Numbered from the stretch's first letter, positions 13,234 to 26,280 are shown. The stretch: DNA of 64,000 nt from an uncultured Spirochaetota bacterium (GCA_963781885.1 CAWAHW010000002.1:128001-192000), one strand, 5' to 3'. The notes: generated by a model from the sequence alone, not told the origin. Program-made: numbers and translations.

Positions 13234-14039
13234 GCCGGGCGCTCGTGACCGGCGCCTCCCGCGGCATCGGGAAGGCCATTGCCGCTTCACTGGTCGCTGC
13301 CGGATACGAGGTTGTCGGCACGAGCCGGCATCCCGAGGCGCTTCCTCCGCACGACAGGATTGACGGCGTCCGCTACCTTGCACTCGACCTGTTGGAGGCC
13401 GGAAGCATCGCGTCGCTTGCGCGGGAAGCCGGACCGGTGGACGTCCTGGTGAGCAATGCCGGGCAGAGCCAGATCGGCGCGGTGGAAGAGCTGCCGGTCG
13501 ACGAGGTGAGAAGGCTTTTCGAGGCGAATCTCTTTGGCGCGCTGCGGGTGATACAGCTATTTCTTCCCGGCATGCGCCAGAGGCGCGCGGGAAAAGTCAT
13601 TGCGGTCGCTTCCATGGCCGCCGTCACACCCGTGCCTTTTCTCTCCTCCTACGCGGCGAGCAAGGCTGCCCTTGTGGCGATGATGCGCGGGCTGCGCTAT
13701 GAGACGGCATCCTTCGGGATCACGGTCGCCGTCGTTGCCCCCTTCGATATCAACACGAGCATTCCCCTGGACATCCGCTACGATGAGCGCTCGGCCTACA
13801 TGCCCGACATCGCCACGGTGCACCAGAGGCGCGACAAGGCCCTTGCCGAAGCGCCGGGACCCGATCTGGTCGCACGCAAGGTGATCTCCATCCTCCGCTC
13901 GCGCCGGCCCGGCTTCTTTCATCCCGTGGGCCGCGGGGCGGGGCTGAACGCGTTTCTCCTGCGGCATCTGCCCGCGAGGACAGTGGAGCGCATCATCCGG
14001 CGCCTCTTTGGGCTTCCGCGAGGGGCAGCTTCACGGTAA
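13230..14039 (+). CDS. Short-chain dehydrogenase, putative 3-dehydrocapnine (3-keto long-chain base) reductase
   Basis: TGASRGIG, SNAG and YAASK motifs; ATGA-coupled to the AOS gene. Confidence 0.8.
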   Translation: MSRALVTGASRGIGKAIAASLVAAGYEVVGTSRHPEALPPHDRIDGVRYLALDLLEAGSIASLAREAGPVDVLVSNAGQSQIGAVEELPVDEVRRLFEANLFGALRVIQLFLPGMRQRRAGKVIAVASMAAVTPVPFLSSYAASKAALVAMMRGLRYETASFGITVAVVAPFDINTSIPLDIRYDERSAYMPDIATVHQRRDKALAEAPGPDLVARKVISILRSRRPGFFHPVGRGAGLNAFLLRHLPARTVERIIRRLFGLPRGAASR

Positions 14040-15828
14040 AACTGGTCTTGCTGCCGGGCACACTGGAAAAGCTGAGGCTGCCGCGGTGGGCCTCCACGAT
14101 GTGCTGGCAGATCGACAAGCCCAGCCCCGTGTTTGTCTTCGTCATCTTCGTGCTGAAAAAAGGCGTGAAAATCCGGTCCTGGATCTCGCGGGGGATGCCG
14201 TAGCCGTTGTCCATGACGGTCACCTCCGCGCAGTCCTCCTCCCGGTTGTGCTGCATCGTCACCTCGATGAGACCGTGGTCCAGCACCGCCTCCACGCTGT
14301 TCATGACGAGGTTGATGAAGAGCTGCTTCAGCTTGTTCTCTTCACCGCTCACGACCAGCGGCTGCTCCGGGAAGCTTGTCCGCACCACGAGACGCTTCTG
14401 GTTCAGCTTGTGACCGAGCAGAAGGATCACCTCGCCCAGAAGCTCCCCGAGGTTCACGGTGCGGCCGTCCACCTGGCTCACGCGTGAGAAGGAGAGCAGG
14501 CTGCCGACGATCGCGACGATCCGGCTGAGCTCATTTTCGATCTTTCCGAGCTTCTCCTTCCCGTCCCCGTCCAGATCCTTCAGCTTCAGAAGCTCGACGT
14601 AGTTCTGGATGATGCCCAGCGGGTTGTTGATCTCGTGTGCCACCCCGGCGGCGAGCTCCGCGATGGAGGCGATCTTCTCCGCGCGCAGGAGGTACTCCTT
14701 CACGAAGTGGTCCATCGACACGTCTTCCAGCATGAGGATGGTCCCCGTGAACCTGTAGTCCTCGTCTTGCAGAGGGAAGCTCTTCAGGAGCAGGAAGCGT
14801 TCGTCGTTCACGGTGATGCCTTCCCAGCTGTGGCGCTCGCGGCCGACGATCTTTTCGCAGATGTCGCCGGCATCGCTCACGTGATGGACCTCCAGCATCT
14901 CGCCGATGGGCACGCGCGGCAGGACGTGATCGTCGGCGCCCAGGATGCGCCGCGCGGCCTGGTTGCTCAGGTAGATCCGGTTGTCGGTGTCCAGGATGAT
15001 CACGCCGACCGGCAGGTCGCTGATGATGCTCTCATTGTAGCGTTTGATCAGCGTGAGCTGCTGGTGCTGGCCCTCGCCCTCCTCGATGTTGAACATGAAG
15101 CTGTAGGCGAGCTTCAGGAGCTTGAACCGGTCCAGGTCGCGCACGAGCTCCGTGCCGCGCCGCTGCCCGTTCTTCAGCACCGTCACGCGGTCGGCGAACT
15201 TGAAGACCTCATCCACGCTCGTGGAGACGTAGATGATGGCCTTGTCGCGGCGGCGGTACTCGGTGAGAAGGCGGAACACCTGGTCCATCTCCTCCGAGTT
15301 CAGGCGGCTGGAGATCTCATCCACGACGAGGATGTCCGGCTCCAGGGATACGACGCGCGCGATCTCCACCATCTGCTGCTCGGCGAGGCTCAGCCGTCCG
15401 ACGGGCGTGTCCAGCGCGACGTGCACGTCGAGCTCCTCCAGCAGGTTGCGGCACCGTTCCCGCACCTCGGAGGGAAAACGCTGCCGCAGCCATACTTTCG
15501 GCAGCCTGCCCAGGGAGATGTTCTCCACGGCGTTCAGCGTCGGGATGAGGCTCAGGTTCTGGTAGACGATGCCGATGCCGTGCCGGATGGCCGCCCGGGG
15601 CGTGGGGAAATCCACCTCGCGGCCCTCCAGCAGGATCGTGCCCTTCTGCTTGCGCAGGTCGCCGCTCAGGATCTTCACGAGGCTGGATTTTCCGGAGCGT
15701 CGCTCCCCGACCAGGGCATGGATCTCCCCCGCGAACAGGTCGAAATCGACACCCTTCAGGGCGGCAACCTCGCCGAAGGAGAAATGGATGTTCTTCATCT
15801 GGAGAAGAGGAAGCCGGGGCTCCTTCAC
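13993..15828 (-). CDS. Fusion protein: degenerate sugar-ABC ATPase domain + PAS + histidine kinase
   Basis: aa ~8-245 RbsA/AraG-like (GERRSGKS, IVYQ, LSLAEQQMVEIAR, VVDE, ADRVTVLKNG); PAS 'SIISDLPVGVIILD...NQAARRILG'; H-box AHEINNPL, N-box NLVMNSVEA, G1 DNGYGI, F-box, G2 GLGLSI. One continuous ORF with no TM segment. Confidence 0.9.
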   Translation of the reverse strand: MKEPRLPLLQMKNIHFSFGEVAALKGVDFDLFAGEIHALVGERRSGKSSLVKILSGDLRKQKGTILLEGREVDFPTPRAAIRHGIGIVYQNLSLIPTLNAVENISLGRLPKVWLRQRFPSEVRERCRNLLEELDVHVALDTPVGRLSLAEQQMVEIARVVSLEPDILVVDEISSRLNSEEMDQVFRLLTEYRRRDKAIIYVSTSVDEVFKFADRVTVLKNGQRRGTELVRDLDRFKLLKLAYSFMFNIEEGEGQHQQLTLIKRYNESIISDLPVGVIILDTDNRIYLSNQAARRILGADDHVLPRVPIGEMLEVHHVSDAGDICEKIVGRERHSWEGITVNDERFLLLKSFPLQDEDYRFTGTILMLEDVSMDHFVKEYLLRAEKIASIAELAAGVAHEINNPLGIIQNYVELLKLKDLDGDGKEKLGKIENELSRIVAIVGSLLSFSRVSQVDGRTVNLGELLGEVILLLGHKLNQKRLVVRTSFPEQPLVVSGEENKLKQLFINLVMNSVEAVLDHGLIEVTMQHNREEDCAEVTVMDNGYGIPREIQDRIFTPFFSTKMTKTNTGLGLSICQHIVEAHRGSLSFSSVPGSKTSFTVKLPLAEAQRGAG

Positions 15829-15829
15829 G

Positions 15830-17155
15830 CTAGGGCTCCAGGCCGAGCTTCTTCATCTTGTTGTACAGCGTCTTTCGATGGATGCGCAGGATTTCCGCGG
15901 CCTTGTGCTTCACGCCGTCGCTCTTCTCCAGCGCGTCGAGGATCATCTGGCGCGACACCGATTCGTAGGCATTGGCCAGGGTTGCCTGCCCGCTCACCGC
16001 GTAGTCGGTATACTGCCGCGGCAGGTCATCCACGGTGAGCTCCGTTGTTTCGCAGAAGATCACCGCGCGCTCGATGCAGTTCTTCAGCTCCCGGACATTG
16101 CCCGGCCAGTTGTGCGCCAGGAGGACCTGTCGGACCCCGGGTGAAAGCCCCTGGATCTGCTTCGAGTACTGCTCGTTGAACTGCAGGAGGAAATACCCCG
16201 CCAGGAGGCCGATGTCCTCCCGGCGCTCGCGCAGGGGCGGCAGGGCGATGCTGATCACCGACATGCGGTAGAACAGGTCCTCGCGGAAGGTGCCCGCGGC
16301 GATCATCTGCGCGATGTTCTTGTTCGTGGCGGCGATGATGCGCACGTCGGCCTTCACCGCCCGGGAGCCGCCCACGCGCGTGAGCGCGCGCTCCTGCAGG
16401 ACGCGCAGCAGCTTCGCCTGCGTGTCGAGGCTCAGGTCGCCGATCTCGTCCAGGAAGAGGCTGCCGCCGTCGGCGAGCTCGAACTTGCCCCGGTGCATCT
16501 TGTGCGCCCCGGTGAACGCCCCTTCCTCGTGACCGAAGAGCTCGCTCTCCAGCAGCGTCTCGGGTATCGCCGCGCAGTTGATCTTCACGAACGGTTTCGC
16601 GCTGCGGTGGCTGAGCGCGTGCAGGGCGTCGGCGACGAGCTCCTTGCCCGTGCCGCTCTCACCGGTGATCACGACGGAGGCATCCGTCGGGCCGACCTTG
16701 TCGATGGTGCGGAATATCTCCCGCATGCGCGGGTTGACCGACCAGACGCGGAAGCTCGGGGGAAGCAGCGGCTCCACGCGGCGGCGGAGGCCATTCGTCC
16801 GCGCGAGCTGCTCCACCTCGTTGAGGAGCTCGGGGATGCGGAGCGGCTTCTCGTAGAAGTTCATCGCCCCGTACCGCATTGCCCGCACGACGTTCTCCGC
16901 GCTCGCGAATCCCGAGATCATGATGATGGGGATCGAGCGATCCCTTTCCTTGACCTCCTTGAGCAGTGCGATCCCGTCCATCACCGGCATCTTCACGTCC
17001 ACGATGATCAGGTCGGGCGGGTCCTCAACGAGGAGGCCCGGCACCTCTTCCGGAAGCGTCGTGTGGCGCGCGCGATAGCCGTGGGACGTCAGCAGCTCGG
17101 ACAGGGAAAGGCACATCTCAATCTCATCGTCCACGATGAGAACGTTGAAGGCCAT
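15830..17155 (-). CDS. NtrC-family sigma54-dependent response regulator
   Basis: REC (VDDE, DVKMP), AAA+ GESGTGKE, intact ESELFGH..GAFTGA, FLDEIG, WPGNVREL, Fis-type HTH 'AAEILRIHRKTLYNK'. Confidence 0.95.
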   Translation of the reverse strand: MAFNVLIVDDEIEMCLSLSELLTSHGYRARHTTLPEEVPGLLVEDPPDLIIVDVKMPVMDGIALLKEVKERDRSIPIIMISGFASAENVVRAMRYGAMNFYEKPLRIPELLNEVEQLARTNGLRRRVEPLLPPSFRVWSVNPRMREIFRTIDKVGPTDASVVITGESGTGKELVADALHALSHRSAKPFVKINCAAIPETLLESELFGHEEGAFTGAHKMHRGKFELADGGSLFLDEIGDLSLDTQAKLLRVLQERALTRVGGSRAVKADVRIIAATNKNIAQMIAAGTFREDLFYRMSVISIALPPLRERREDIGLLAGYFLLQFNEQYSKQIQGLSPGVRQVLLAHNWPGNVRELKNCIERAVIFCETTELTVDDLPRQYTDYAVSGQATLANAYESVSRQMILDALEKSDGVKHKAAEILRIHRKTLYNKMKKLGLEP

Positions 17156-17161
17156 GGCGCC

Positions 17162-17190
17162 ATGATAGGCGGCGGCGCGCCTGAAATCAA
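17162..17190 (-). promoter_or_regulatory. sigma70-type promoter for leaderless RR-kinase operon
   Basis: TTGATT-N17-TATCAT on the minus strand, 6 nt before ATG 17155; no SD. Confidence 0.55.
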
Positions 17191-17268
17191 GCGCGCGCCG
17201 CGGTTGCGTGCAGGAAGCGCCGTGTTGCGTGCCCCCCGGGATTCGTGTACAACGAGTGGTGAGAAGCC

Positions 17269-18360
17269 ATGCGCGGGGACACATCGACACGCCGGAGAGC
17301 TCTCGCCTGCGCCCTCTGCGTCACTCTCGCCGCCCTTGCCGCCGCCTCCTGTTCCGGGGCGAATGCCGGGCGGAAAGGCGCCTCTCCTCCCATCCGCATC
17401 GGATTCCTCGTGAAGCGCCCGGAAGAGCTGTGGTTCCAGAATGAATGGCGCTATGCGCAGAAATGCGCCGATACCAATGGCTTCCAGCTCATCAAGATCG
17501 GCGTGCCGGACGGCGACAAGGTGCTCGCCGCCATCGACAATCTTGCCGCGCAGGGCGCCCAGGGCTTCGTGATATGCACCCCTGACGTGCGCCTGGGACC
17601 GGCCATCCTCTCCCGCGCCTCCACCTATGGCATGAAGGTATTCACCGTCGACGACCAATTCGTGGGTCCTGACGGCAGCTTCATCAAGGTGCCCTACATG
17701 GGCATCTCCTCGCCGCAGATCGGCGCGGCGGTCGCGAACGCCCTCTACGACGAGTATCAGAAGCGCCAGTGGCGGCCCGAGGAGACGGCGGCACTCGCCG
17801 TGACATTCGACGAGCTGAACACCGTCAAGGAGCGCACCGACGCTGCGGCGGAAACCCTGAAGGCGCGAAGCTTCCCCGCGGACCGCATCTTCCGCATTCC
17901 CGAAAAAACGGCGGACCTGCCCGGCGCATTCGACGCCGCGAGCATCGCCCTGTCCCAGCACGCCGAGGTAAAGCGCTGGCTGGTTTTTTCCATCAACGAC
18001 GAGGGGGTGCTGGGGGCCATTCGCGCGATGGAAAACCGCGGCTTCAACGCCGACACGGTGATCGGCATCGGCATTGGCTCCAGCCTGGGCATCATCGAGT
18101 TTCGCAAGCGCGAGATCACGCCCTTCTTCGCGTTCTGTCTCATCAACCCATACATGCACGGCTTCCAGACCACCGAATGGCTCTACCGGTGGGTGAGCGC
18201 CGGCATCCAGCCGCCGATGGACACCCGCACCCCCGGTACGATCGTGACGCGCGACGACTATCGGGACATCTTCCAGAGCCGCGGACTTGAGGAGCTGCTC
18301 CTCCCGCAGCCGGGCGACGCGAAGCCGCAGGACGCCGACAGGGGACGGGGCGAATCATGA
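17269..18360 (+). CDS. araF: L-arabinose-binding-protein-like lipoprotein
   Basis: 'IGFLVKRPEELWFQNEW', 'GFVICTPD', 'VDDQFV', 'NDEGVLG' closely parallel E. coli AraF; lipobox-like LAAASC. Confidence 0.85.
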   Translation: MRGDTSTRRRALACALCVTLAALAAASCSGANAGRKGASPPIRIGFLVKRPEELWFQNEWRYAQKCADTNGFQLIKIGVPDGDKVLAAIDNLAAQGAQGFVICTPDVRLGPAILSRASTYGMKVFTVDDQFVGPDGSFIKVPYMGISSPQIGAAVANALYDEYQKRQWRPEETAALAVTFDELNTVKERTDAAAETLKARSFPADRIFRIPEKTADLPGAFDAASIALSQHAEVKRWLVFSINDEGVLGAIRAMENRGFNADTVIGIGIGSSLGIIEFRKREITPFFAFCLINPYMHGFQTTEWLYRWVSAGIQPPMDTRTPGTIVTRDDYRDIFQSRGLEELLLPQPGDAKPQDADRGRGES

Positions 18361-19334
18361 ACGCCCGCGCGGATGCCCTTTCTCGCGGCCGGCTCGTCGC
18401 CGCCCGGGTGCGCGGCGCCTGGAGCCGCTACACGAGCCTCTTGATCCTGGTGGTCATCGTCGCCGCCTCTTCGATATTCGTCCCGCACTTCCTCTCTTGG
18501 ATCAACATCATCGGCTTGGGCCTGTCGATCTCCATGGTGGGCATGGTGGCCTGCTCGATGCTCCTGTGCCTGGCCTCCGGTGGATTCGATCTCTCGGTGG
18601 AATCGGTCGTCGCATTCTCCGGGGTGCTCGCCGCGGTCGTGATCAATTCCAGCGGCAGCGTGCTCGGTGGCGTCCTGGCAGGCATACTGGCCGGCGGTCT
18701 TGTCGGCGCGGTCAACGGGGCCATCGTCTCCTACTTTTCCCTGAATCCGCTGATCACCACCCTCGCCGTCATGCAGATCGTGCGCGGTCTCGGCTTTCTG
18801 GTCTCCCAGGGCTCGGCAGTGGGCGTGAACAATACGGGCTTTTTCGTTCTGGGTGCCGGGCGCATCCTGTCCATCCCGAACCCGATCTGGATCACCGTTT
18901 TTCTCATGATCCTCTTCGCGTTCGTGCTCACGCGCACCTCGTTCGGTCGCAACATGCGCGCGGTCGGGGGAAATGAGACGGCGGCGCGCTTGAAAGGGAT
19001 CGCGGTCAACCGCACGAAGATGATCGTCTATATCGTGCAGGGCTTGATCGCGGGTTTTGCCGGTGTCGTGCTCGCCTCCCGCATGACCAGCGGTCAGCCC
19101 AATACGTCCCAGGGATTCTCCATGGACGTGATTTCCGCCTGCGTCCTGGGCGGCGTATCGCTCTCGGGTGGCGTGGGGACGCTCAGCGGCACGATCATCG
19201 GTGTGCTGATCATGGGCTCCGTCCAGAATGCCATGAATCTTCTCAATATCCCGACCTTCTACCAGTACATCCTGCGCGGCTTCATCCTTCTCCTCGCCGT
19301 GCTTCTCGACCAGTTCAAACGCAGGAGCAAGTAG
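18357..19334 (+). CDS. araH: L-arabinose ABC permease-like protein
   Basis: 'GMVACSMLLCLASGGFDLSV', 'ASRMTSGQP', 'ISACVLGGVSLSGG' match AraH; ATGA-coupled to araF. Confidence 0.85.
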   Translation: MNARADALSRGRLVAARVRGAWSRYTSLLILVVIVAASSIFVPHFLSWINIIGLGLSISMVGMVACSMLLCLASGGFDLSVESVVAFSGVLAAVVINSSGSVLGGVLAGILAGGLVGAVNGAIVSYFSLNPLITTLAVMQIVRGLGFLVSQGSAVGVNNTGFFVLGAGRILSIPNPIWITVFLMILFAFVLTRTSFGRNMRAVGGNETAARLKGIAVNRTKMIVYIVQGLIAGFAGVVLASRMTSGQPNTSQGFSMDVISACVLGGVSLSGGVGTLSGTIIGVLIMGSVQNAMNLLNIPTFYQYILRGFILLLAVLLDQFKRRSK

Positions 19335-19347
19335 CCGCCGCGCCGCA

Positions 19348-19399
19348 ACGTGCACGAATGTGCACGTCGACTATTGACGAGCGTGGCGCCACGTGCACG
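19348..19399. promoter_or_regulatory. Putative enhancer (UAS) pair for the sigma54 activator
   Basis: ACGTGCAC-GAAT-GTGCACGT (19348-19367) and the related CGTGGCGCCACGTGCACG (19382-19399), 33 bp apart and 80-135 bp upstream of the -24 box. Confidence 0.55.
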
Positions 19400-19479
19400 A
19401 CGTCCTGGGCAGCGCGACTGGGGCACATTCTATTTGCTTACCATGAATGCAGTTGACTCATTTTCCCCGCGCGCTGCCC

Positions 19480-19496
19480 TTGGTACGCCGCTTGCA
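19480..19496 (+). promoter_or_regulatory. sigma54 (-24/-12) promoter
   Basis: TTGGTACG-CCGC-TTGCA; one mismatch to TGGCACG-N4-TTGCA with exact spacing. Confidence 0.8.
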
Positions 19497-19539
19497 CCAT
19501 GAGCAGCGAGGCCCGGAACGGCTCGAGGAGGCTCAGGCG

Positions 19540-20327
19540 GTGGCGACGGCAGGCGACTACAAGACAGCAATCCGCATGGAAGGCATCGAGAAGTACTTCG
19601 GCAATGTCGCGGCGTTGCGCGGCATCAACCTGGAGGTCGGCAGGGACGAGGTCATCGGGTTGATCGGCGACAACGGGGCAGGAAAGTCCACGCTGATCAA
19701 GATCATGACGGGTGTCTTCCCCCCACCTCGGGTGCAATGTACCTGCGCGACCAGCCCGTATCCTTCTCGGGCTATAGCGTCCGTGAGGCGCACAAGCGCG
19801 GCATCGAGACGGTCTACCAGGACAAGTCACTCGGGGAGAAGCAGGTCCTCTGGAGGAACTTCTTCATCGGTCGGGAGATCACGCTCCCCTTCGGCTTCAT
19901 CGACGTGAAGAAGGAAAAGAAGATCGCCCAGGGCATCATGGTGGATACCATCGGGTTCCGCGGCAAGGGCATCACCGTGGAGTCGCGCGCAAGCAAGCTC
20001 TCCGGCGGCGAGCGCCAGGGCGTGGCCATCGGCCGCGCCATGCATTTCGAGGCGGACCTGATCATCCTGGATGAGCCCACGGTGGCCCTCTCCCTGAAAG
20101 AGGTGCGCAAGGTGCTCTCCTTCGTGCAGAAGATCAAGGAGGCCGGCAAGGCCTGCATCTACATCACGCACGATCTGCAGGATGTCTACCAGATATCGGA
20201 CCGTTTCATCGTGCTGGATAGAGGGGAGATCGTGGCAAGCATCGCGAAGAACGAGATCAGCCTGAAGGAGCTGGACACGTTCCTGCTCGAATACTCGCAC
20301 GGCCTGAAAGACAAGGTGCAGCCATGA
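19540..20327 (+). CDS. Sugar ABC transporter ATP-binding protein (single domain), frameshift in C-run near 19720
   Basis: GDNGAGKS in the first frame; LSGGERQ, ILDEPT and YITH in the second. One more C in the C6 run restores FPPTSG. SD GAGGAGG before GTG. Confidence 0.85.
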
Positions 20328-21379
20328 AACACGGAAACTCGCGCTTCGCATTCATCGGGAAGATCGAGGGGCTGCCGATCGCGGCGGTGCTTGCCATCCT
20401 CTACGTCATCTTCATCTTCACCGCGCCGTCGGTCTTTACCGGATATCGCATCTACATGTCTTTCTTCCAGACCGTGCCGCCGATGCTCGTGCTTGCAATC
20501 GGCCTGACCTTCATCATCACCGCGGGGGAGATCGACCTGAGCTTCCCCGCCGTCGTGGCGCTGTCGGGTTTCGTCTTTACCTGGGTTTTCAAGACCTACC
20601 ACGCCCCATGGATCGGCTTCATCCTCGCACTCGCCTCGGGCGCCCTGGTGGGGTATATCAACGGGATCCTGGTGGCGCGCCTGCGGGTGCCGTCCATCAT
20701 GGCAACCCTGGCGACGCAGTTCTTCTGGTACGGCGTGACGCTCCTGATCGCGGGCGGTCTCCAGATCAATATCGAAGAGATCCAGACCAATCTCATCCAC
20801 ACCGTGTTCGTCGGTCGGATCTTCGGCGTCTTCCCCGCGCAGGCGCTCTGGTCGCTCGGTGTCGTGATAGTGTTCTGGTTCATCCTGAACCGGCACAAGT
20901 TCGGCGAGGCGATCATGTTCATCGGCGACAATGCCGACGTCGCGCGCGTAATGGGCATCAACGTCGAGACGACGCGGATCAAGCTGTTCACCATGCATGG
21001 CGTGCTCGCCGCCTTTGCCGGGCTCCTCCTGACGATAGAGATCAACGTCTTCTTCCCGACGCAGGGACAGGGCATGCTCCTGCCGGTCATGGCGGCTGTC
21101 TTCATCGGCGGCACGTCGATCGCGGGCGGCCAGGGCGCCATCGTGGGCACCTTTTTCGGCTCGTACATCATCGGCTCCCTGGAAGCAGGCGTCGTGGCAA
21201 CAGGCATCGGCGGCTACTGGGTGCAGCTCGTGGAAGGAGTCGTGATGGCAGCCTCCGTGATCCTCAACGTGATCATCGGGGACGAGGGTGCCGCCCTTCT
21301 GGCGCGGACCGCCCGCAAGTGGGCCGTGCCGGAACAGGCGCCGCCCGGCAAGGAGCCCGCGGCTCACGGCGATTCATGA
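20324..21379 (+). CDS. Sugar ABC transporter permease
   Basis: 'AGEIDLSF', 'AAVFIGGTSIAGG', multiple TM segments. Confidence 0.9.
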   Translation: MKHGNSRFAFIGKIEGLPIAAVLAILYVIFIFTAPSVFTGYRIYMSFFQTVPPMLVLAIGLTFIITAGEIDLSFPAVVALSGFVFTWVFKTYHAPWIGFILALASGALVGYINGILVARLRVPSIMATLATQFFWYGVTLLIAGGLQINIEEIQTNLIHTVFVGRIFGVFPAQALWSLGVVIVFWFILNRHKFGEAIMFIGDNADVARVMGINVETTRIKLFTMHGVLAAFAGLLLTIEINVFFPTQGQGMLLPVMAAVFIGGTSIAGGQGAIVGTFFGSYIIGSLEAGVVATGIGGYWVQLVEGVVMAASVILNVIIGDEGAALLARTARKWAVPEQAPPGKEPAAHGDS

Positions 21380-21510
21380 GGAACAGGCGCGCCGTTGTGC
21401 GCGGTCTTTGAATCCTGAGCGAAAGGGGGAGGTGCAAACTGAGGCTTTCTTGTCTGCGGCCGCGCCGTGATGGCGCCGGCTTAAATACCTTTCTCAAGAA
21501 GGGGGAATCT

Positions 21511-22491
21511 GTGCGGAAGATGAAATGGGTCATTCTGGCTTTGGTGATCTTCGGGGCGCTGTTCGCAGCCCAGACCTGGGCGGCGGACAAGCAGCTCGTC
21601 ATCTACATGCAGTGCGGCGGGACGCAGGGCGACGGCGCCACGCTTGCGCGCACCAACGGCGCACGGGCGGCGGCCGCGGCGAACAACGTCAAGCTGATCG
21701 AACAGTACTCCAAGTGGGATCAGCAGACGATGATCGACCAGTTCAAGCAGGCCATGGCGGCCAACCCTGACGGCATCGAGATCATGGGCCACCCGGGCGA
21801 GGCAGCATTTGCGGCGCTCGTCGACCAGGCCGAGGCACAGGGCATCATCGTCACCAGCGGCAACAACCCGCTGCCGAACATCGAGGCGAAGTACCACGAT
21901 AAGGGCTTTGGGTACGCGGGCGCCGATCTCTACCAGGGCGGCTACCTCACGGGCCAGTCGATGGTCAAGGCAGGCAACCTGAAGGCCGGTGACAAGGCTC
22001 TCGTGTACGACATCTGGCACCAGGAAGGCCGCAGCCGCAGCAGCCAGGGCGTCTATGACGCGCTGGCAAAGGCCGGACTCATCGTCGACAAGCTCGACGT
22101 GTCCGCGGCGGTGGACAGCGACACCTCGCTTGCCATCCCCATCCTCACGGCGTATCTCCAGGCGCATCCCGACCTCAAGGCCATCGGCACCCAGCACGGC
22201 AGCGTGACCGCAATCCTGCCGAAGGTGCTCCAGGCGGCAGGGAAGAAGCCCGGCGACATCATCTGCGGCGGTATCGACCTTTCGCCCGCCACGGTAAGCG
22301 CCATCCAGGGCGGCTGGATTACCGCCAGCTTCGACCAGGTGCTGTATCTCCAGGGATACCTCCCGGTCCTCCAGATCGTCCTCACAAAGCGCTACCTGAT
22401 CCCCGGTCTGCACATCGACACCGGCGTCGGCACCGTGACCCCGCTGAACGTGGCCACGATCAAGCCCCTCATCGACCAGGGAATCCGCTAG
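21511..22491 (+). CDS. Sugar ABC transporter substrate-binding protein
   Basis: Signal peptide; type I periplasmic-binding fold motifs 'PDGI', 'DQVLYLQGY'. Confidence 0.88.
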   Translation: MRKMKWVILALVIFGALFAAQTWAADKQLVIYMQCGGTQGDGATLARTNGARAAAAANNVKLIEQYSKWDQQTMIDQFKQAMAANPDGIEIMGHPGEAAFAALVDQAEAQGIIVTSGNNPLPNIEAKYHDKGFGYAGADLYQGGYLTGQSMVKAGNLKAGDKALVYDIWHQEGRSRSSQGVYDALAKAGLIVDKLDVSAAVDSDTSLAIPILTAYLQAHPDLKAIGTQHGSVTAILPKVLQAAGKKPGDIICGGIDLSPATVSAIQGGWITASFDQVLYLQGYLPVLQIVLTKRYLIPGLHIDTGVGTVTPLNVATIKPLIDQGIR

Positions 22492-22511
22492 ACGGAGCAT
22501 GTTTGTGTGAT

Positions 22512-22544
22512 GTGCCCCCGCGAAAGCGGGGGCACTTTCTTTTT
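22512..22544 (+). terminator. Rho-independent terminator
   Basis: GTGCCCCCGC-GAAA-GCGGGGGCAC followed by TTTCTTTTT. Confidence 0.85.
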
Positions 22545-22562
22545 CACGCGATCGATACGCCG

Positions 22563-23372
22563 TCACACGCTGATATTTTTTCTCTGGAACGACCACAGGG
22601 AGCCGCCCACCAGCGCGAGCGTCGCGGCAAGCGGCACGGCGATGTCGACGCCGGACAGCCCATGCTGCATCACGTCGGCGGTGTCGTAGTACGCGTAGAA
22701 GGAGATCGCGCGGAGCGCGTGGACGAACGAGCCGGTGGCCGTCCGCCCGAGCACGTCAATGAACCAGCTCGCGATGAGAAAAACAACCGCGATGGCCGCC
22801 GCATGCGACTTTCGCCGGGCACAGGTCGCGACGAAGACAGTGAAGGCGAGCACGATCAGCGTCCCCGGCAGGATGTACAGGCTCGCATCGATGATGGTTC
22901 GGGTGGCGATATGCACCGCGGGGGTGGCGCGAAGACTGAGGAAGATCGCGCCGGTGCTGATGACAATGACCCCGACGGCCAGAACGCCGGATGCGAGGAA
23001 TTTCTCCAGCACGACGCGCCAGCGGGGCACGGGCATGCTGAGCAGCACGTCCATGATCCCCCGGTCTTCCTCGTTGGCCGTGACATTCAGTCCCATGATG
23101 ATCGCGTAGACGCCGAATATGACGAGGATGATCGCGTAGTACTGGTTGTTGAGGAAGCCCGCCGGGGAGGCCAGGAACGCGAGATCCCCGCCGCCCACCA
23201 TCTGGACGACGAACAGGGGCATTCTGGAAATCGCCTCCGCGGTCGCGCGCATGCCATTGGCATCCGGCACGGCGATGATGTTGAGGAGCGCGATCAACCC
23301 GATGCCGATTCCCCAATAGATCATCGACCGCCACCCGCGCCGCAGCGTCTCGAAGAATATCGCACGAGGCAT
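22563..23372 (-). CDS. ABC-2 type permease
   Basis: About 6 TM segments; 'ANEEDRGIMDVLLSMPVPRWRVVLEKFLA'. Confidence 0.85.
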   Translation of the reverse strand: MPRAIFFETLRRGWRSMIYWGIGIGLIALLNIIAVPDANGMRATAEAISRMPLFVVQMVGGGDLAFLASPAGFLNNQYYAIILVIFGVYAIIMGLNVTANEEDRGIMDVLLSMPVPRWRVVLEKFLASGVLAVGVIVISTGAIFLSLRATPAVHIATRTIIDASLYILPGTLIVLAFTVFVATCARRKSHAAAIAVVFLIASWFIDVLGRTATGSFVHALRAISFYAYYDTADVMQHGLSGVDIAVPLAATLALVGGSLWSFQRKNISV

Positions 23373-23382
23373 GCCGTCCTCC

Positions 23383-24192
23383 TTACAGGCCGATGTTCCG
23401 CCGCTGAAAGAGCCACGTGCCGCCCGCCATCAGCACGACCGTGACGACGCCCAGCACGAGCACATTGCCCCAGTCCAGGCCGTGGCGGATCACGGCCGTG
23501 CTGTCGTAGTAGCTGTAGAACGAGAGAAAGCGCAGCGTGCCGGCGAATGAGGCGCTCGCCTGGCGTCCGATGCTGTCGATGAAGTAGCTGCCAAGGATCA
23601 CCACGATGGCGACTGCCGCCGCAACATTCTTGCGGCGGATCACGGACGTGAGAAGCACCGTCATCGCGATCACGACGAGGGTGCTTGGCAGCATGTTGAG
23701 GGTCGTTTCCAGCAGCCTGACCTGGTCGATGGACAATGCGGGCGATGCCCGCAGACCGATCCACAGTCCGCCGAAGGTCAGGGCGATGATGCCCGCGATG
23801 ATGACGACGAAGGCCAGGAACTTTTCCAGCACCAGGCGCCAGCGGGAAACGGGCAGGCTCAACAGCACGTCCATGATCCTGCTGTCTTCCTCGTTCGCCG
23901 TGATGTTCAAGCCCGCAATCACCCCGTAGGCCGCCAGGATGAGCAGGGCGTAGCTGAAGAAGATCATGTTCAGGAACCCCGTCGGCGTCGCCATCGAGGC
24001 GGCGTCCTCTCCCCCGAACATGGCGAGCATGGCGGGCGGCACGCTTTGAAAGGCGCGCGCCATGTCCTTCAGCATGTCGGCGTTGGGGACGATCAGGGCC
24101 ACCGACAATCCCAGCGCGCCGATCCCCAGCCCCCACCAGAGCATCTGCATCCAGTTGCGCCTCAGGGTCTCCTCGAATACCGCCCCGGTCAT
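23383..24192 (-). CDS. ABC-2 type permease (paralogue of neighbour)
   Basis: 'ANEEDSRIMDVLLSLPVSRWRLVLEKFLA'; same 269-aa length as the adjacent paralogue. Confidence 0.85.
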   Translation of the reverse strand: MTGAVFEETLRRNWMQMLWWGLGIGALGLSVALIVPNADMLKDMARAFQSVPPAMLAMFGGEDAASMATPTGFLNMIFFSYALLILAAYGVIAGLNITANEEDSRIMDVLLSLPVSRWRLVLEKFLAFVVIIAGIIALTFGGLWIGLRASPALSIDQVRLLETTLNMLPSTLVVIAMTVLLTSVIRRKNVAAAVAIVVILGSYFIDSIGRQASASFAGTLRFLSFYSYYDSTAVIRHGLDWGNVLVLGVVTVVLMAGGTWLFQRRNIGL

Positions 24193-25142
24193 ACCGCCAT
24201 CTCCGCGGTCGCGCGATGATTGTTCTGCATGGCGGGCGAATCGCCGTAATAGGTGAGGAATATCTCTTCCAGCGTCGGCTCCTGGATCTGCATGTCGACG
24301 ATATAGGCCGCGTCGACCGCCCGGATCAGAGGGTCGAAATCCCCCGTCAGCTTGAGGCGGAGCCTGTCGCCGCTCGCCGACACGTCCGTCACGCCGCTGA
24401 GGCCCGCCACCGCGCCAAGAGGCGCCGCGGCGCGGAACTGGAACGTCACCCAGCGGAAGTCGGTGTGCATCATGTCGCTCACCGTTTTCACCTCCTTGAG
24501 CTGCCCGCTGCGCAGGATCCCGACACGGTCGCAGATCTCCTGCACCTCGTTGAGGACGTGGGAGGACAGGAAGACCGTGCAGCCGTCTTCCCGCGCTTCC
24601 CGCATGAGCTGGAGGAATATCTGCTGCATGAGCGGATCGAGGCCGTTGGTCGGCTCATCGAGGATGAGCAGCTCCGGCCTGCTCATCAGAGCGAGGATCA
24701 GACCGAGCTTGCGCTTGTTGCCGCTGGAGTAGCTGCGCACCTTCTTGCCCGGGTCGAATTCCAGGCGCTCGGCAAGGTTAGTGACGTATTTCATGTCCGG
24801 GCCGCCGCGCAGGCTGCCGACGTAGTGGATGACCTGGCGGGCCGTCAGGTTTTCCCACAGGCTGAGCTCGCCGGGGAGAAAGCCGATCCGCTTGTGCAGC
24901 GCGACGCTGTGCTGCCGGACGTCCATGCCCAGGATGGAGGCGTGACCCGCCGTGGGACGGATCAGGTCCAGCAGAAGCCTGATCGTGGTGGTTTTCCCCG
25001 CCCCGTTCGGTCCAAGGTACCCGAAGATCTCACCCGGCTGGATACTGAGGGTGAGGGAGTCCAGCGCGGGCTTCGCTTTTTTCCCGCCCCTGTAGACCAT
25101 TGTCAGGTTGTCCGTCTGGATCACTGGCGTCCGTGTCATCAT
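24189..25142 (-). CDS. ABC-2 type ATP-binding protein
   Basis: GPNGAGKT, YSSGNKRK, LILDEPT, LSSH. Confidence 0.92.
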   Translation of the reverse strand: MMTRTPVIQTDNLTMVYRGGKKAKPALDSLTLSIQPGEIFGYLGPNGAGKTTTIRLLLDLIRPTAGHASILGMDVRQHSVALHKRIGFLPGELSLWENLTARQVIHYVGSLRGGPDMKYVTNLAERLEFDPGKKVRSYSSGNKRKLGLILALMSRPELLILDEPTNGLDPLMQQIFLQLMREAREDGCTVFLSSHVLNEVQEICDRVGILRSGQLKEVKTVSDMMHTDFRWVTFQFRAAAPLGAVAGLSGVTDVSASGDRLRLKLTGDFDPLIRAVDAAYIVDMQIQEPTLEEIFLTYYGDSPAMQNNHRATAEMAV

Positions 25143-25167
25143 CGCTCTCCCCCTTTTCTCCACCTGC

Positions 25168-26280
25168 TCATTGTTTTTGTCCCGATCCCGGTGCGTCGCG
25201 CCCCGGCATCGTGAAATCCTCAAACGGCTTTTTCCCTTTCGCAACGTCGTCTATCACCTTGCCCAGCGAAAGGTCCTGGACCGCCGCGGACGGCAGGAGC
25301 ACGATCGTTCCGTTCTTCCGGATCCCCTCATAGGTGATGCTCATGCCGCGCAGCTGCAGGGCAGTCGGGTTGTCGCGATAACGCTTCGATGCTTCGACGT
25401 AGCTGTCGGCGACCTCCTGCTCCGCTTCCGCAAGGATGAGACGGGATTGCCGTTCGCGCTGGGCTTGTGCCTGCCGGGAGAGGGCATCCTCCAGCTCTTT
25501 CGAGATGACGATGTCGGTGATGCCGATGGAGAGGATCGTGATTCCCCACGGGCTCGTGCGCGCGTCGAGAAACTCCTGGATCTCCTTGCCCAGCCTTTCC
25601 TGCTCGGAGAGGAGGCTCGCCAAGTCGTGTTTGCCGATGGCGTTTCGCAGCGCCGCGTGGGCCGCGAGCGTCACCGATTCCAGATAATCCGCGACCTCCA
25701 GCGTGGCCTTTTCCGCGTCCCACACCATCCAGAAGGCGATGGCATCGACGCTGACCGGAACCGTGTCCTTCGTGAGGGTCGTTTCGTGATGGAACTCCAC
25801 CACCCGGATGCGGGTGTCCATCAACCGGGCGGCCCGGTCGACAAGCGGCGCGATGAGGAAGACGCCCGGTCCCCGCAGGCCGGCAAACCTTCCCAGGCGG
25901 AACATGACGACCTTTTCCCACTGCTGGGCGAGCTGGATCGTCGGCATGAGGATGAACCCTGCTCCCATCACTGCGAGCGGTGCGAGAAACGCGTCGCCCA
26001 ACGCCCAGCGCAGCGCCGCTCCCGCCGCCACGATGAATGCAAGATCGAGAATCCACAGCGGGAAGAAGTACAGAATGAGGACCGCGATGAAGCAGCCGAG
26101 AACAACACATCCCAGCGCTTCGAGCTGAAACGACGCGCCGCCGAGGATCGGGATCAGGGCGCCCGCCCCGACCGCGATCACGAAAAGGAGGAAACCCAGG
26201 CTGGAAAGCCTGAAATCCCTTTCCGTCCCGCGCCTGTCGACCTGACCCCCAGGGGGGAGCTCACGAGTGATGAGCGTCAT
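25168..26280 (-). CDS. SPFH/stomatin (slipin) family membrane protein with extra N-terminal TM helices
   Basis: 'VMFRLGRF..GPG', 'TKDTVPVSVDAI', 'SRQAQAQRERQSR', 'PTALQLR'. Confidence 0.88.
   Translation of the reverse strand: MTLITRELPPGGQVDRRGTERDFRLSSLGFLLFVIAVGAGALIPILGGASFQLEALGCVVLGCFIAVLILYFFPLWILDLAFIVAAGAALRWALGDAFLAPLAVMGAGFILMPTIQLAQQWEKVVMFRLGRFAGLRGPGVFLIAPLVDRAARLMDTRIRVVEFHHETTLTKDTVPVSVDAIAFWMVWDAEKATLEVADYLESVTLAAHAALRNAIGKHDLASLLSEQERLGKEIQEFLDARTSPWGITILSIGITDIVISKELEDALSRQAQAQRERQSRLILAEAEQEVADSYVEASKRYRDNPTALQLRGMSITYEGIRKNGTIVLLPSAAVQDLSLGKVIDDVAKGKKPFEDFTMPGRDAPGSGQKQ

Follow-up and report, generated by a model that had tools for sequence, protein, structure and literature searches.

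A 64,000-nucleotide stretch of DNA from an uncultured Spirochaetota bacterium (GCA_963781885.1 CAWAHW010000002.1:128001-192000; hereafter the window) carries a soluble histidine kinase whose N-terminal part is the nucleotide-binding domain (NBD) of an ATP-binding cassette (ABC) transporter. Beside it lie an NtrC-type regulator, a divergent araF-araH pair without araG, and a second sugar ABC operon preceded by a sigma-54 promoter. We give about an even chance to the reading that this locus is a transporter-coupled sugar sensor derived from an arabinose ABC importer. The further proposal that the importer has been turned into a transmembrane receptor, with the kinase in the place of the ATPase following deletion of araG at least once and probably twice, falls slightly short of even in our judgement. 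Transporter-coupled two-component sensing is a known kind of system, and the wiring seen here is new, being undescribed in the literature searched (titles and abstracts), where no account of a kinase with an NBD-PAS-HisKA-HATPase_c architecture was found. That search agrees with an earlier note on this DNA, made from the sequence alone, which knew of no characterised kinase that itself supplies an ABC subunit. The genes on which the proposal turns are the following.

13993-15828, minus strand: fusion histidine kinase, 611 aa, soluble, with NBD, PAS, HisKA and HATPase_c domains (Pfam, NCBIfam)
15079-15828, minus strand: NBD module of the kinase (residues 1-250), CUT2-type, resembling the N-terminal half of AraG/RbsA (Pfam/NCBIfam and motif alignment)
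14719-15033, minus strand: PAS domain of the kinase (residues 266-370; Pfam, AlphaFold2 model)
14017-14661, minus strand: HisKA (residues 390-450) and HATPase_c (residues 496-604) of the kinase (Pfam, alignment A2)
15830-17158, minus strand: NtrC-type sigma-54 activator, with its likely start at Met45 of a longer open reading frame (ORF; 15830-17290)
17269-18360, plus strand: AraF-like sugar-binding lipoprotein (SBP1; PDB 6abp/1abe, E 1e-90; signal peptide/lipobox)
18357-19334, plus strand: AraH-type permease (PERM1; NF008441, 438.7 bits against a cut-off of 378)

The earlier note had described the kinase as a 611-aa ABC-PAS-kinase ORF without a transmembrane helix, and domain searches and hydropathy analysis bear this out. 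Pfam places ABC_tran at residues 24-172 (94.8 bits). Residues 6-224 align to the N-terminal half of the NCBIfam AraG model (positions 5-222 of 504) and also match the first halves of the YtfR, AlsA and RbsA models; residues 256-607 match positions 261-612 of the 616 in the AtoS model. All NCBIfam scores lie far under the equivalog cut-offs: the AraG model reaches 197.2 bits against 689, the protein having a single NBD and not the tandem pair of about 500 aa, and the AtoS model 230.1 bits against 646, with its membrane-anchored N-terminal part unmatched. No membrane helix was predicted in the kinase, where the best 19-residue Kyte-Doolittle window is 1.31. Like AtoS/NtrB-class kinases, the protein combines a HisKA domain bearing a phospho-acceptor histidine with a HATPase_c domain, and this residue, His398, is invariant in the 60 sequences of alignment A2. 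In an AlphaFold2 monomer model (mean predicted local distance difference test score, pLDDT, 76), the NBD, PAS, dimerization and histidine phosphotransfer (DHp) and catalytic domains are folded confidently.

The NtrC-type regulator with an intact GAFTGA motif that the note had placed beside the kinase was likewise recovered, its stop codon lying one base from the GTG start of the kinase gene. Pfam recognizes Response_reg, Sigma54_activat (239.8 bits), AAA_lid_14 and HTH_8 domains, and GAFTGA stands at residue 257 of the ORF. The protein thus has the receiver, AAA+ and helix-turn-helix composition of the NtrC family, with a -24/-12 promoter nearby and rpoN present in the genome. In the 110-bp spacer between the regulator gene and araF, GTTGCGTGC occurs twice as a direct repeat (17203-17232) with 12 bases between the copies, and this repeat is only partly conserved in the relative L001 described below. 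It has CGTGCA in common with the repeats upstream of the sigma-54 promoter and might be an operator for autoregulation.

The NBD of the kinase keeps Walker A (GERRSGKS), the Q-loop Gln and the Walker B Asp-Glu pair. Its signature is degenerate, reading LSLAEQQ without glycines, and the H-loop His is replaced by Thr. Across 133 family sequences, Walker A G/GKS, the Q-loop Gln and the Walker B Asp are each present in all 133, the catalytic Glu in 130 and the H-loop His in 94. The N-terminal halves of CUT2 ATPases are generally described as having a weakened signature as well. Because of the H-loop Thr and the degenerate signature, the NBD would probably bind ATP and be able to close, yet hydrolyse ATP poorly and serve as a poor motor. 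The H-loop residue is Thr in this kinase and six close relatives, and Ser in the clade linked to araFGH operons. We considered whether loss of the H-loop His tracks the loss of araG and ruled this out: Ser or Thr is already found in araFGH-linked relatives that keep AraG, so the H-loop change is older than the araG loss.

The other half of the proposed sensor is a clear AraF-AraH pair. As the note had it, the pair is divergent from the kinase operon and has no ATPase of its own: araF and araH overlap by 4 bases, with no ATPase gene between them. AraF has a lipoprotein-type signal peptide, and of the 13 residues that we take to be its sugar contacts, 9 are identical in the window, 2 are Met-to-Ile changes and 2 differ. 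A promoter scan found no -24/-12 site upstream of araF, either in the window or in its 93%-identical relative L001, which comes from a Spirochaetaceae genome record; the araFGH-type relatives do have such a site at that position. The two genes also abut in L001 (on the same contig as locus L160) and in L162, which represents another species of the genus (82% DNA identity) and in which the second ABC operon follows araH as it does in the window.

In seven relatives (L117, L124, L128, L129, L187, L189 and L191), the AraF and AraH orthologues flank a double-NBD ATPase in the order araF-araG-araH, and in L127, whose contig is cut, the binding protein and ATPase are visible. The binding proteins of the araFGH-linked relatives are 43-50% and their permeases 52-59% identical to those of the window; the NBD of the kinase is a distant paralogue of the relatives' ATPases (34-38% identity). 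Within G000, the genome holding this locus, 12 of the 15 CUT2-permease clusters have their own ATPase, the others being two lone weak hits and the present locus. Compared with the orthologous ATPase type, the closest G000 protein reaches only 44-45% identity and has a permease of its own next to it, and two further double-NBD ATPases also have permease-like neighbours. Neither an araG orthologue nor an orphan double-NBD ATPase was found in G000, which is 92.55% complete and had 16,000 bases outside the search. The only L-arabinose isomerase gene of G000 is on another contig, away from the locus (C3:92907-93404).

The pair is not decaying. Between the window and L001, the ratio of nonsynonymous to synonymous substitution rates (dN/dS) is 0.128 for araF, 0.053 for araH and 0.070 for the kinase NBD (dS 0.39-0.63), compared with 0.131 for the rest of the kinase and 0.074 for the regulator (dS 0.28-0.63 in the whole comparison). 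Against L162, both araF and araH give 0.080 (dS about 0.91) and the three genes of the second operon 0.064-0.094 (dS 0.62-0.98 in the whole comparison). araF, araH and the kinase NBD are therefore under strong purifying selection. All five araG-less permeases still have the EAA motif of the coupling helix. It reads E-T-A-A-R-L-K-G in all three genomes of the window lineage and I/V-E-A-A-R-L-A-G in the araFGH-linked relatives, a difference that could reflect either adaptation to a different NBD partner or drift.

A second araG-less arrangement occurs in two metagenome contigs, L118 and L120, whose kinases are about 50% identical to that of the window. Here araF is followed directly by araH, convergent with the family kinase, and no ATPase gene was found in the 9.1 kb and 4.7 kb available, respectively. 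araA and a class II aldolase gene lie nearby in L118. Between the two contigs araH is 74% identical (dN/dS 0.247 at dS 0.72; kinase 0.228). Their regulator (L118:3-1124, minus strand; same position in L120) has a receiver domain and lacks the sigma-54 module, so the family is not tied to sigma-54 in every case; no -24/-12 site was found near araF in either contig. On quick trees, the window clade (support 100) and the L118+L120 pair (support 100) are not sisters. L118+L120 stand beside the araFGH-linked clade (support 86), within a ten-row clade (support 99) that excludes the window. With araFGH as the ancestral order, as the canonical form suggests, this would mean two losses of araG.

Downstream of araH on the same strand lies the presumed target of the kinase-regulator pair.

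19349-19400, plus strand: candidate enhancer with three GTGCAC-containing sites, 85-130 bp upstream of the -24/-12 element
19481-19496, plus strand: sigma-54 promoter TGGTAC-N5-TTGCA (consensus scan; conserved in L001)
19577-20327, plus strand: single-NBD ABC ATPase (NBD2), frameshifted in the assembly at a C-run
20324-21379, plus strand: CUT2-type permease (PERM2; Pfam BPD_transp_2; dN/dS 0.094 against L162)
21511-22491, plus strand: sugar-binding protein (SBP2; Pfam Peripla_BP_4; dN/dS 0.078; PDB matches only remote)

The -24/-12 element is the sole match to TGGCAC-N5-TTGCW with at most one mismatch in the 64-kb window, and sits about 80 bp before the NBD2 ATG in the 240-bp spacer between araH and NBD2. 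Promoter and GTGCAC sites are conserved between the window and L001, and the spacer around them has diverged. The genome has 65 sigma-54-like sites, and no other among them has three GTGCAC within 220 bp upstream; we infer that the regulator binds the GTGCAC sites. The GTGCAC repeats are limited to the window lineage, relatives having other palindromes, and an enhancer motif conserved across relatives was accordingly rejected. A second promoter candidate, GGGGCAC...TTGCTT at 19415-19440, was discarded for its N7 spacing in place of N5.

The note had also claimed that the operon behind this promoter is a complete sugar ABC operon. Promoter and separate operon stand, with one correction: NBD2 reads in two frames in this assembly, switching at a run of six Cs (19719-19724). 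A 247-nt contig from public run X1, otherwise identical, has one extra C in this run; X1 may be the source sample of the window assembly, and its contig is then not independent support. The NBD2 orthologue in L162 is an intact 262-aa ORF, and the C-terminal part of NBD2 gives a dN/dS of 0.064. On these three grounds, a homopolymer error in the assembly is the most likely explanation, not a dead gene, and the assembly may contain further frameshifts of this type. Elsewhere in the genome (C4:6225-9091) there is a paralogous set of three genes that is self-contained. Past the second operon, 22563-26280 (minus strand) encodes two ABC-2 type membrane proteins, a DrrA-like ABC ATPase and an SPFH/Band 7 protein, an exporter set with no apparent relation to the sugar system. 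At a G+C content of about 64%, the region gives crowded raw ORF lists.

The fusion kinase belongs to a conserved family. Among 120 listed homologues (47-93% identity), 119 are proteins of 594-623 aa with ABC_tran, HisKA and HATPase_c, named, where a name is given, AtoS or "ATP-binding cassette domain-containing". Full-length matches were found in 14 of 401 genomes of a phylum sample, in 31 of 92 genomes of the order and in 15 of 20 genomes of the window's genus, and several order genomes have two or three copies each. A scan of genome contigs with the whole kinase was less productive: 79 of its 80 loci (L002-L080) had matched through a single conserved peptide pattern, proved to be ordinary ATPases of sugar ABC systems and were dropped, leaving L001 as the only true relative. 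Paralogous kinase-regulator pairs, often two or three per genome (G464, G471, G431), each have their own CUT2 transporter. Two such pairs stand back to back in L193 (9009-15862). Directly downstream of the family kinase in L183 (8196-8535) lie permease fragments, 64-69% identical to a relative's permease, which are possibly a decayed second transporter; a complete transporter is on the kinase's other side.

Flanking genes were examined at 17 phylum, 22 metagenome and 40 order loci. Wherever sequence is available, a regulator lies directly upstream of the kinase, save in L118/L120, and it is nearly always NtrC-type. An automatic rule placed it there in 62 of 73 loci, the other 11 being mostly contig ends or gaps just over the rule's limit, together with L118/L120, whose regulator is of another class. 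In nearly every locus with enough flank the neighbouring transporter is complete: its binding protein belongs to Peripla_BP_4 or BP_1, its ATPase has two NBDs in about 500 aa, and the permeases number one or two. The same rule counted permeases beside their own ATPase in 54 of the 73 loci and no permease in 13 (mostly short contigs), the rest being a lone permease at a cut flank (4), a lone permease with enough flank (1, L118) and a mixed case (1). This rule is coarse: it files the window among the 54 because NBD2 lies within 2.6 kb of PERM1, misses L162 with its split kinase gene and scores contig-end cases as lacking a regulator or permease; for this reason the araG-less loci were assessed manually. 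In relatives, each of the 22 regions examined has a correctly oriented sigma-54 site ahead of the adjoining transporter operon; such sites occur there at 2.53 per kb, against 0.095 per kb elsewhere in the same loci.

This context contradicts the note's expectation that homologues would always stand beside a binding protein and permease lacking an ATPase. At almost all related loci the adjoining CUT2 transporter includes a double-NBD ATPase, and it is this transporter that the sigma-54 promoter serves. The window departs from that pattern in that its araF-araH pair has neither ATPase nor sigma-54 promoter, the promoter standing instead before the second operon. An ATPase-less receptor is thus a rare derived state and not the design of the family.

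We propose the following model as the simplest account of the findings. The two NBDs of the kinase dimer would occupy AraG's position on the coupling helices of the AraH dimer. From outside, AraF carrying sugar would dock on AraH and, much as happens in an ordinary importer, favour ATP-dependent closing of the two NBDs; the movement would travel along the conserved linker between NBD and PAS, then via PAS itself to the DHp helices, and switch autophosphorylation of His398. The phosphorylated regulator, on the GTGCAC repeats, would then open the promoter at 19481-19496 and induce the NBD2-PERM2-SBP2 importer, so that the AraF-AraH-kinase complex would signal rather than transport. In relatives with AraG, kinase and AraG would share one permease, the transporter both importing and reporting. 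In the window lineage, the second importer would have taken over uptake, araG would have been lost, and AraF, AraH and the kinase would have become a dedicated receptor.

For the presumed docking of the kinase NBD on the permease, which the note had also put forward, this lineage offers the best comparative evidence so far, because araG is gone from the locus, no copy turned up in the rest of the genome searched, and araF and araH are under purifying selection; the L118/L120 lineage offers a parallel. Prediction of the physical complex lends weak support. For two PERM1 chains with kinase residues 1-250, the score was 0.47, against 0.00 for the best of three controls, with at least 89% contact agreement between runs and a partner pLDDT of at least 73. 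Of 80 solved complexes, 58 attain the mark applied to such predictions, as do 2 of the 110 mismatched pairs; at scores of 0.60 or below, it is reached by only 7 of the 80 solved complexes and by both passing mismatches. Because NBD-permease complexes have already been solved, the score may be a memory of that fold, and it is not specific to the kinase NBD.

Several observations weigh against this model, beginning with the weakness of the complex prediction. At the large majority of family loci, the neighbouring transporter comes with a double-NBD ATPase; such an ATPase would fill both NBD sites of the permease, so that the kinase must compete or act otherwise. No NBD motif change tracks the loss of araG, and the NBD-PAS linker (residues 234-264) is of low confidence in the monomer model. 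An araG elsewhere is possible at the completeness of G000, and AraH could be served in trans by NBD2, a single-NBD protein whose gene follows araH on the same strand after 240 bp. On the unrooted kinase tree, the labelled rows need only one change (support 86). Finally, in L162 the frame of the kinase gene shifts and residues 369-404 are missing, the phospho-acceptor His among them, with araF and araH intact. The gap, within L162:9001-10717, corresponds to window positions 14618-14725, and the neighbouring genes are all intact; both halves of the gene have a dN/dS of about 0.15. An assembly fault is likely, because no part of the kinase is more conserved than the segment affected, to which metagenome contigs from many organisms align in numbers; the alternatives are recent inactivation or araF-araH outliving the kinase.

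The chief rival, which we consider unlikely but to be taken seriously, builds on these points. AraF-AraH would be an ordinary importer powered in trans by NBD2 or another CUT2 ATPase, and the kinase NBD would never touch AraH, instead sensing cytoplasmic ATP/ADP or the transporter ATPase, or only dimerising, with PAS as the ligand sensor; kinase and regulator would still control the neighbouring transporter operon. The position of NBD2, at least 12 other CUT2 ATPases in the genome, the PAS domain itself and the intact araF-araH of L162 beside an apparently broken kinase gene all fit, and the kinase is unneeded as a motor at most family loci, where the transporter has its own ATPase. Yet NBD2 has its own permease and binding protein, as does the self-contained paralogous set at C4, and a sigma-54 promoter separates it from araH. 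L118/L120 keep araF-araH with no ATPase gene in view. We also know of no ATPase sharing among CUT2 systems, and the strict linkage to CUT2 transporters and the universal Q-loop Gln are hard to fit to a purely cytoplasmic ATP sensor.

Rather improbable, in our estimate, is a complex that both transports and signals, in which the kinase NBDs on AraH would also power a slow import of arabinose. Retention of Walker A, the Q-loop, Walker B and the catalytic Glu here and in almost the whole family speaks for it, as does the dispensability of araG in two lineages that conserve araF and araH; the regulated target is however a separate inducible importer, and with Thr at the H-loop here, Ser/Thr across the arabinose clade and the LSLAEQQ signature, both ATP sites of the homodimer would be degenerate. 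That araF and araH are remnants of an importer dead since the araG deletion, the kinase working alone, would account for the absent araG and the missing sigma-54 promoter upstream of araF. It is very hard to reconcile with two genes intact in three genomes of the lineage and a dN/dS of 0.05-0.13 at dS 0.4-0.9, as low as for kinase and regulator (likewise for araH in L118/L120), and we hold it to be highly improbable. A wrongly joined pair of separate ABC and kinase genes, the chimera against which the note had advised a check, is refuted: nothing but the odd architecture suggests it, and there are hundreds of full-length homologues in many assemblies, with a dN/dS of 0.07-0.15 over both kinase halves. 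A 2037-nt contig of run X2, from another study and about 90% identical, also spans the whole gene (13945-15916); among public-run contigs, only the X1 and X2 pieces were used, most matches being conserved kinase or AAA+ regions of other organisms.

A transporter-coupled sensor of the proposed kind would have both precedents and clear differences from them. In the MalK-MalT and PstSCAB systems, importer state is read at the NBD, which stays a transporter subunit and acts through MalT sequestration or PhoU. In LuxP-LuxQ, TorT-TorS and ChvE-VirA, a periplasmic sugar-type binding protein signals to the periplasmic domain of a membrane-spanning kinase. Here, unlike in PstSCAB-PhoU-PhoR and MalK-MalT, the NBD is covalently part of the kinase, and, unlike in the three binding-protein systems, the signal would pass through the permease to a soluble kinase. 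The locus has clear homologues of E. coli AraF and AraH, and relatives with the canonical araF-araG-araH order; it differs from E. coli AraFGH in that araG is absent and the only AraG-like domain is the N-terminal domain of the kinase. In PstSCAB-PhoU-PhoR, the state of the ABC importer governs gene expression (PMC12976172).

In BceRS-BceAB of Firmicutes, as presented in PMC3023708 and PMC9169098, a kinase without its own ligand-binding domain perceives via an ABC transporter; kinase, regulator and transporter genes adjoin, as here, and the transporter is also a regulated target. BceS is a membrane kinase contacting an exporter-type permease, and BceA stays an ATPase (PMC3023708, PMC9169098). 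The present kinase is instead soluble, bears an NBD and is linked to a binding-protein-dependent CUT2 importer whose ATPase is gone in this lineage. With neither a two-helix intramembrane kinase nor a BceAB-type exporter with a large extracellular loop, the likeness is functional only. CbrA/CrbS (SLC5/STAC) resemble the present kinase in fusing a transporter module to a kinase, often with an NtrC-type regulator, and the fused module there is a whole membrane symporter (PMC7096432, PMC5715377 and PMC9100948). Here, in contrast, the fused part is the cytoplasmic ABC motor domain, and the membrane part and binding protein are separate genes.

Known readouts of transporter activity use either membrane kinases that touch the transporter or kinases fused to a whole carrier. 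If the proposed model is true, a soluble kinase carrying the ABC motor domain would be a third solution, in which docking of the binding protein would be coupled mechanically and directly, by way of NBD closure, to the switching of the kinase. The family is widespread, occurring in a third of the order genomes searched and often in two or three copies each, and the present locus is its most informative member so far, because evolution has removed the competing ATPase. It would amount to a minimal system of four genes (araF, araH, the kinase and the regulator) and one promoter that can be moved to a laboratory host, and such modules could serve as sugar biosensors whose specificity is set by swapping the binding protein and permease.

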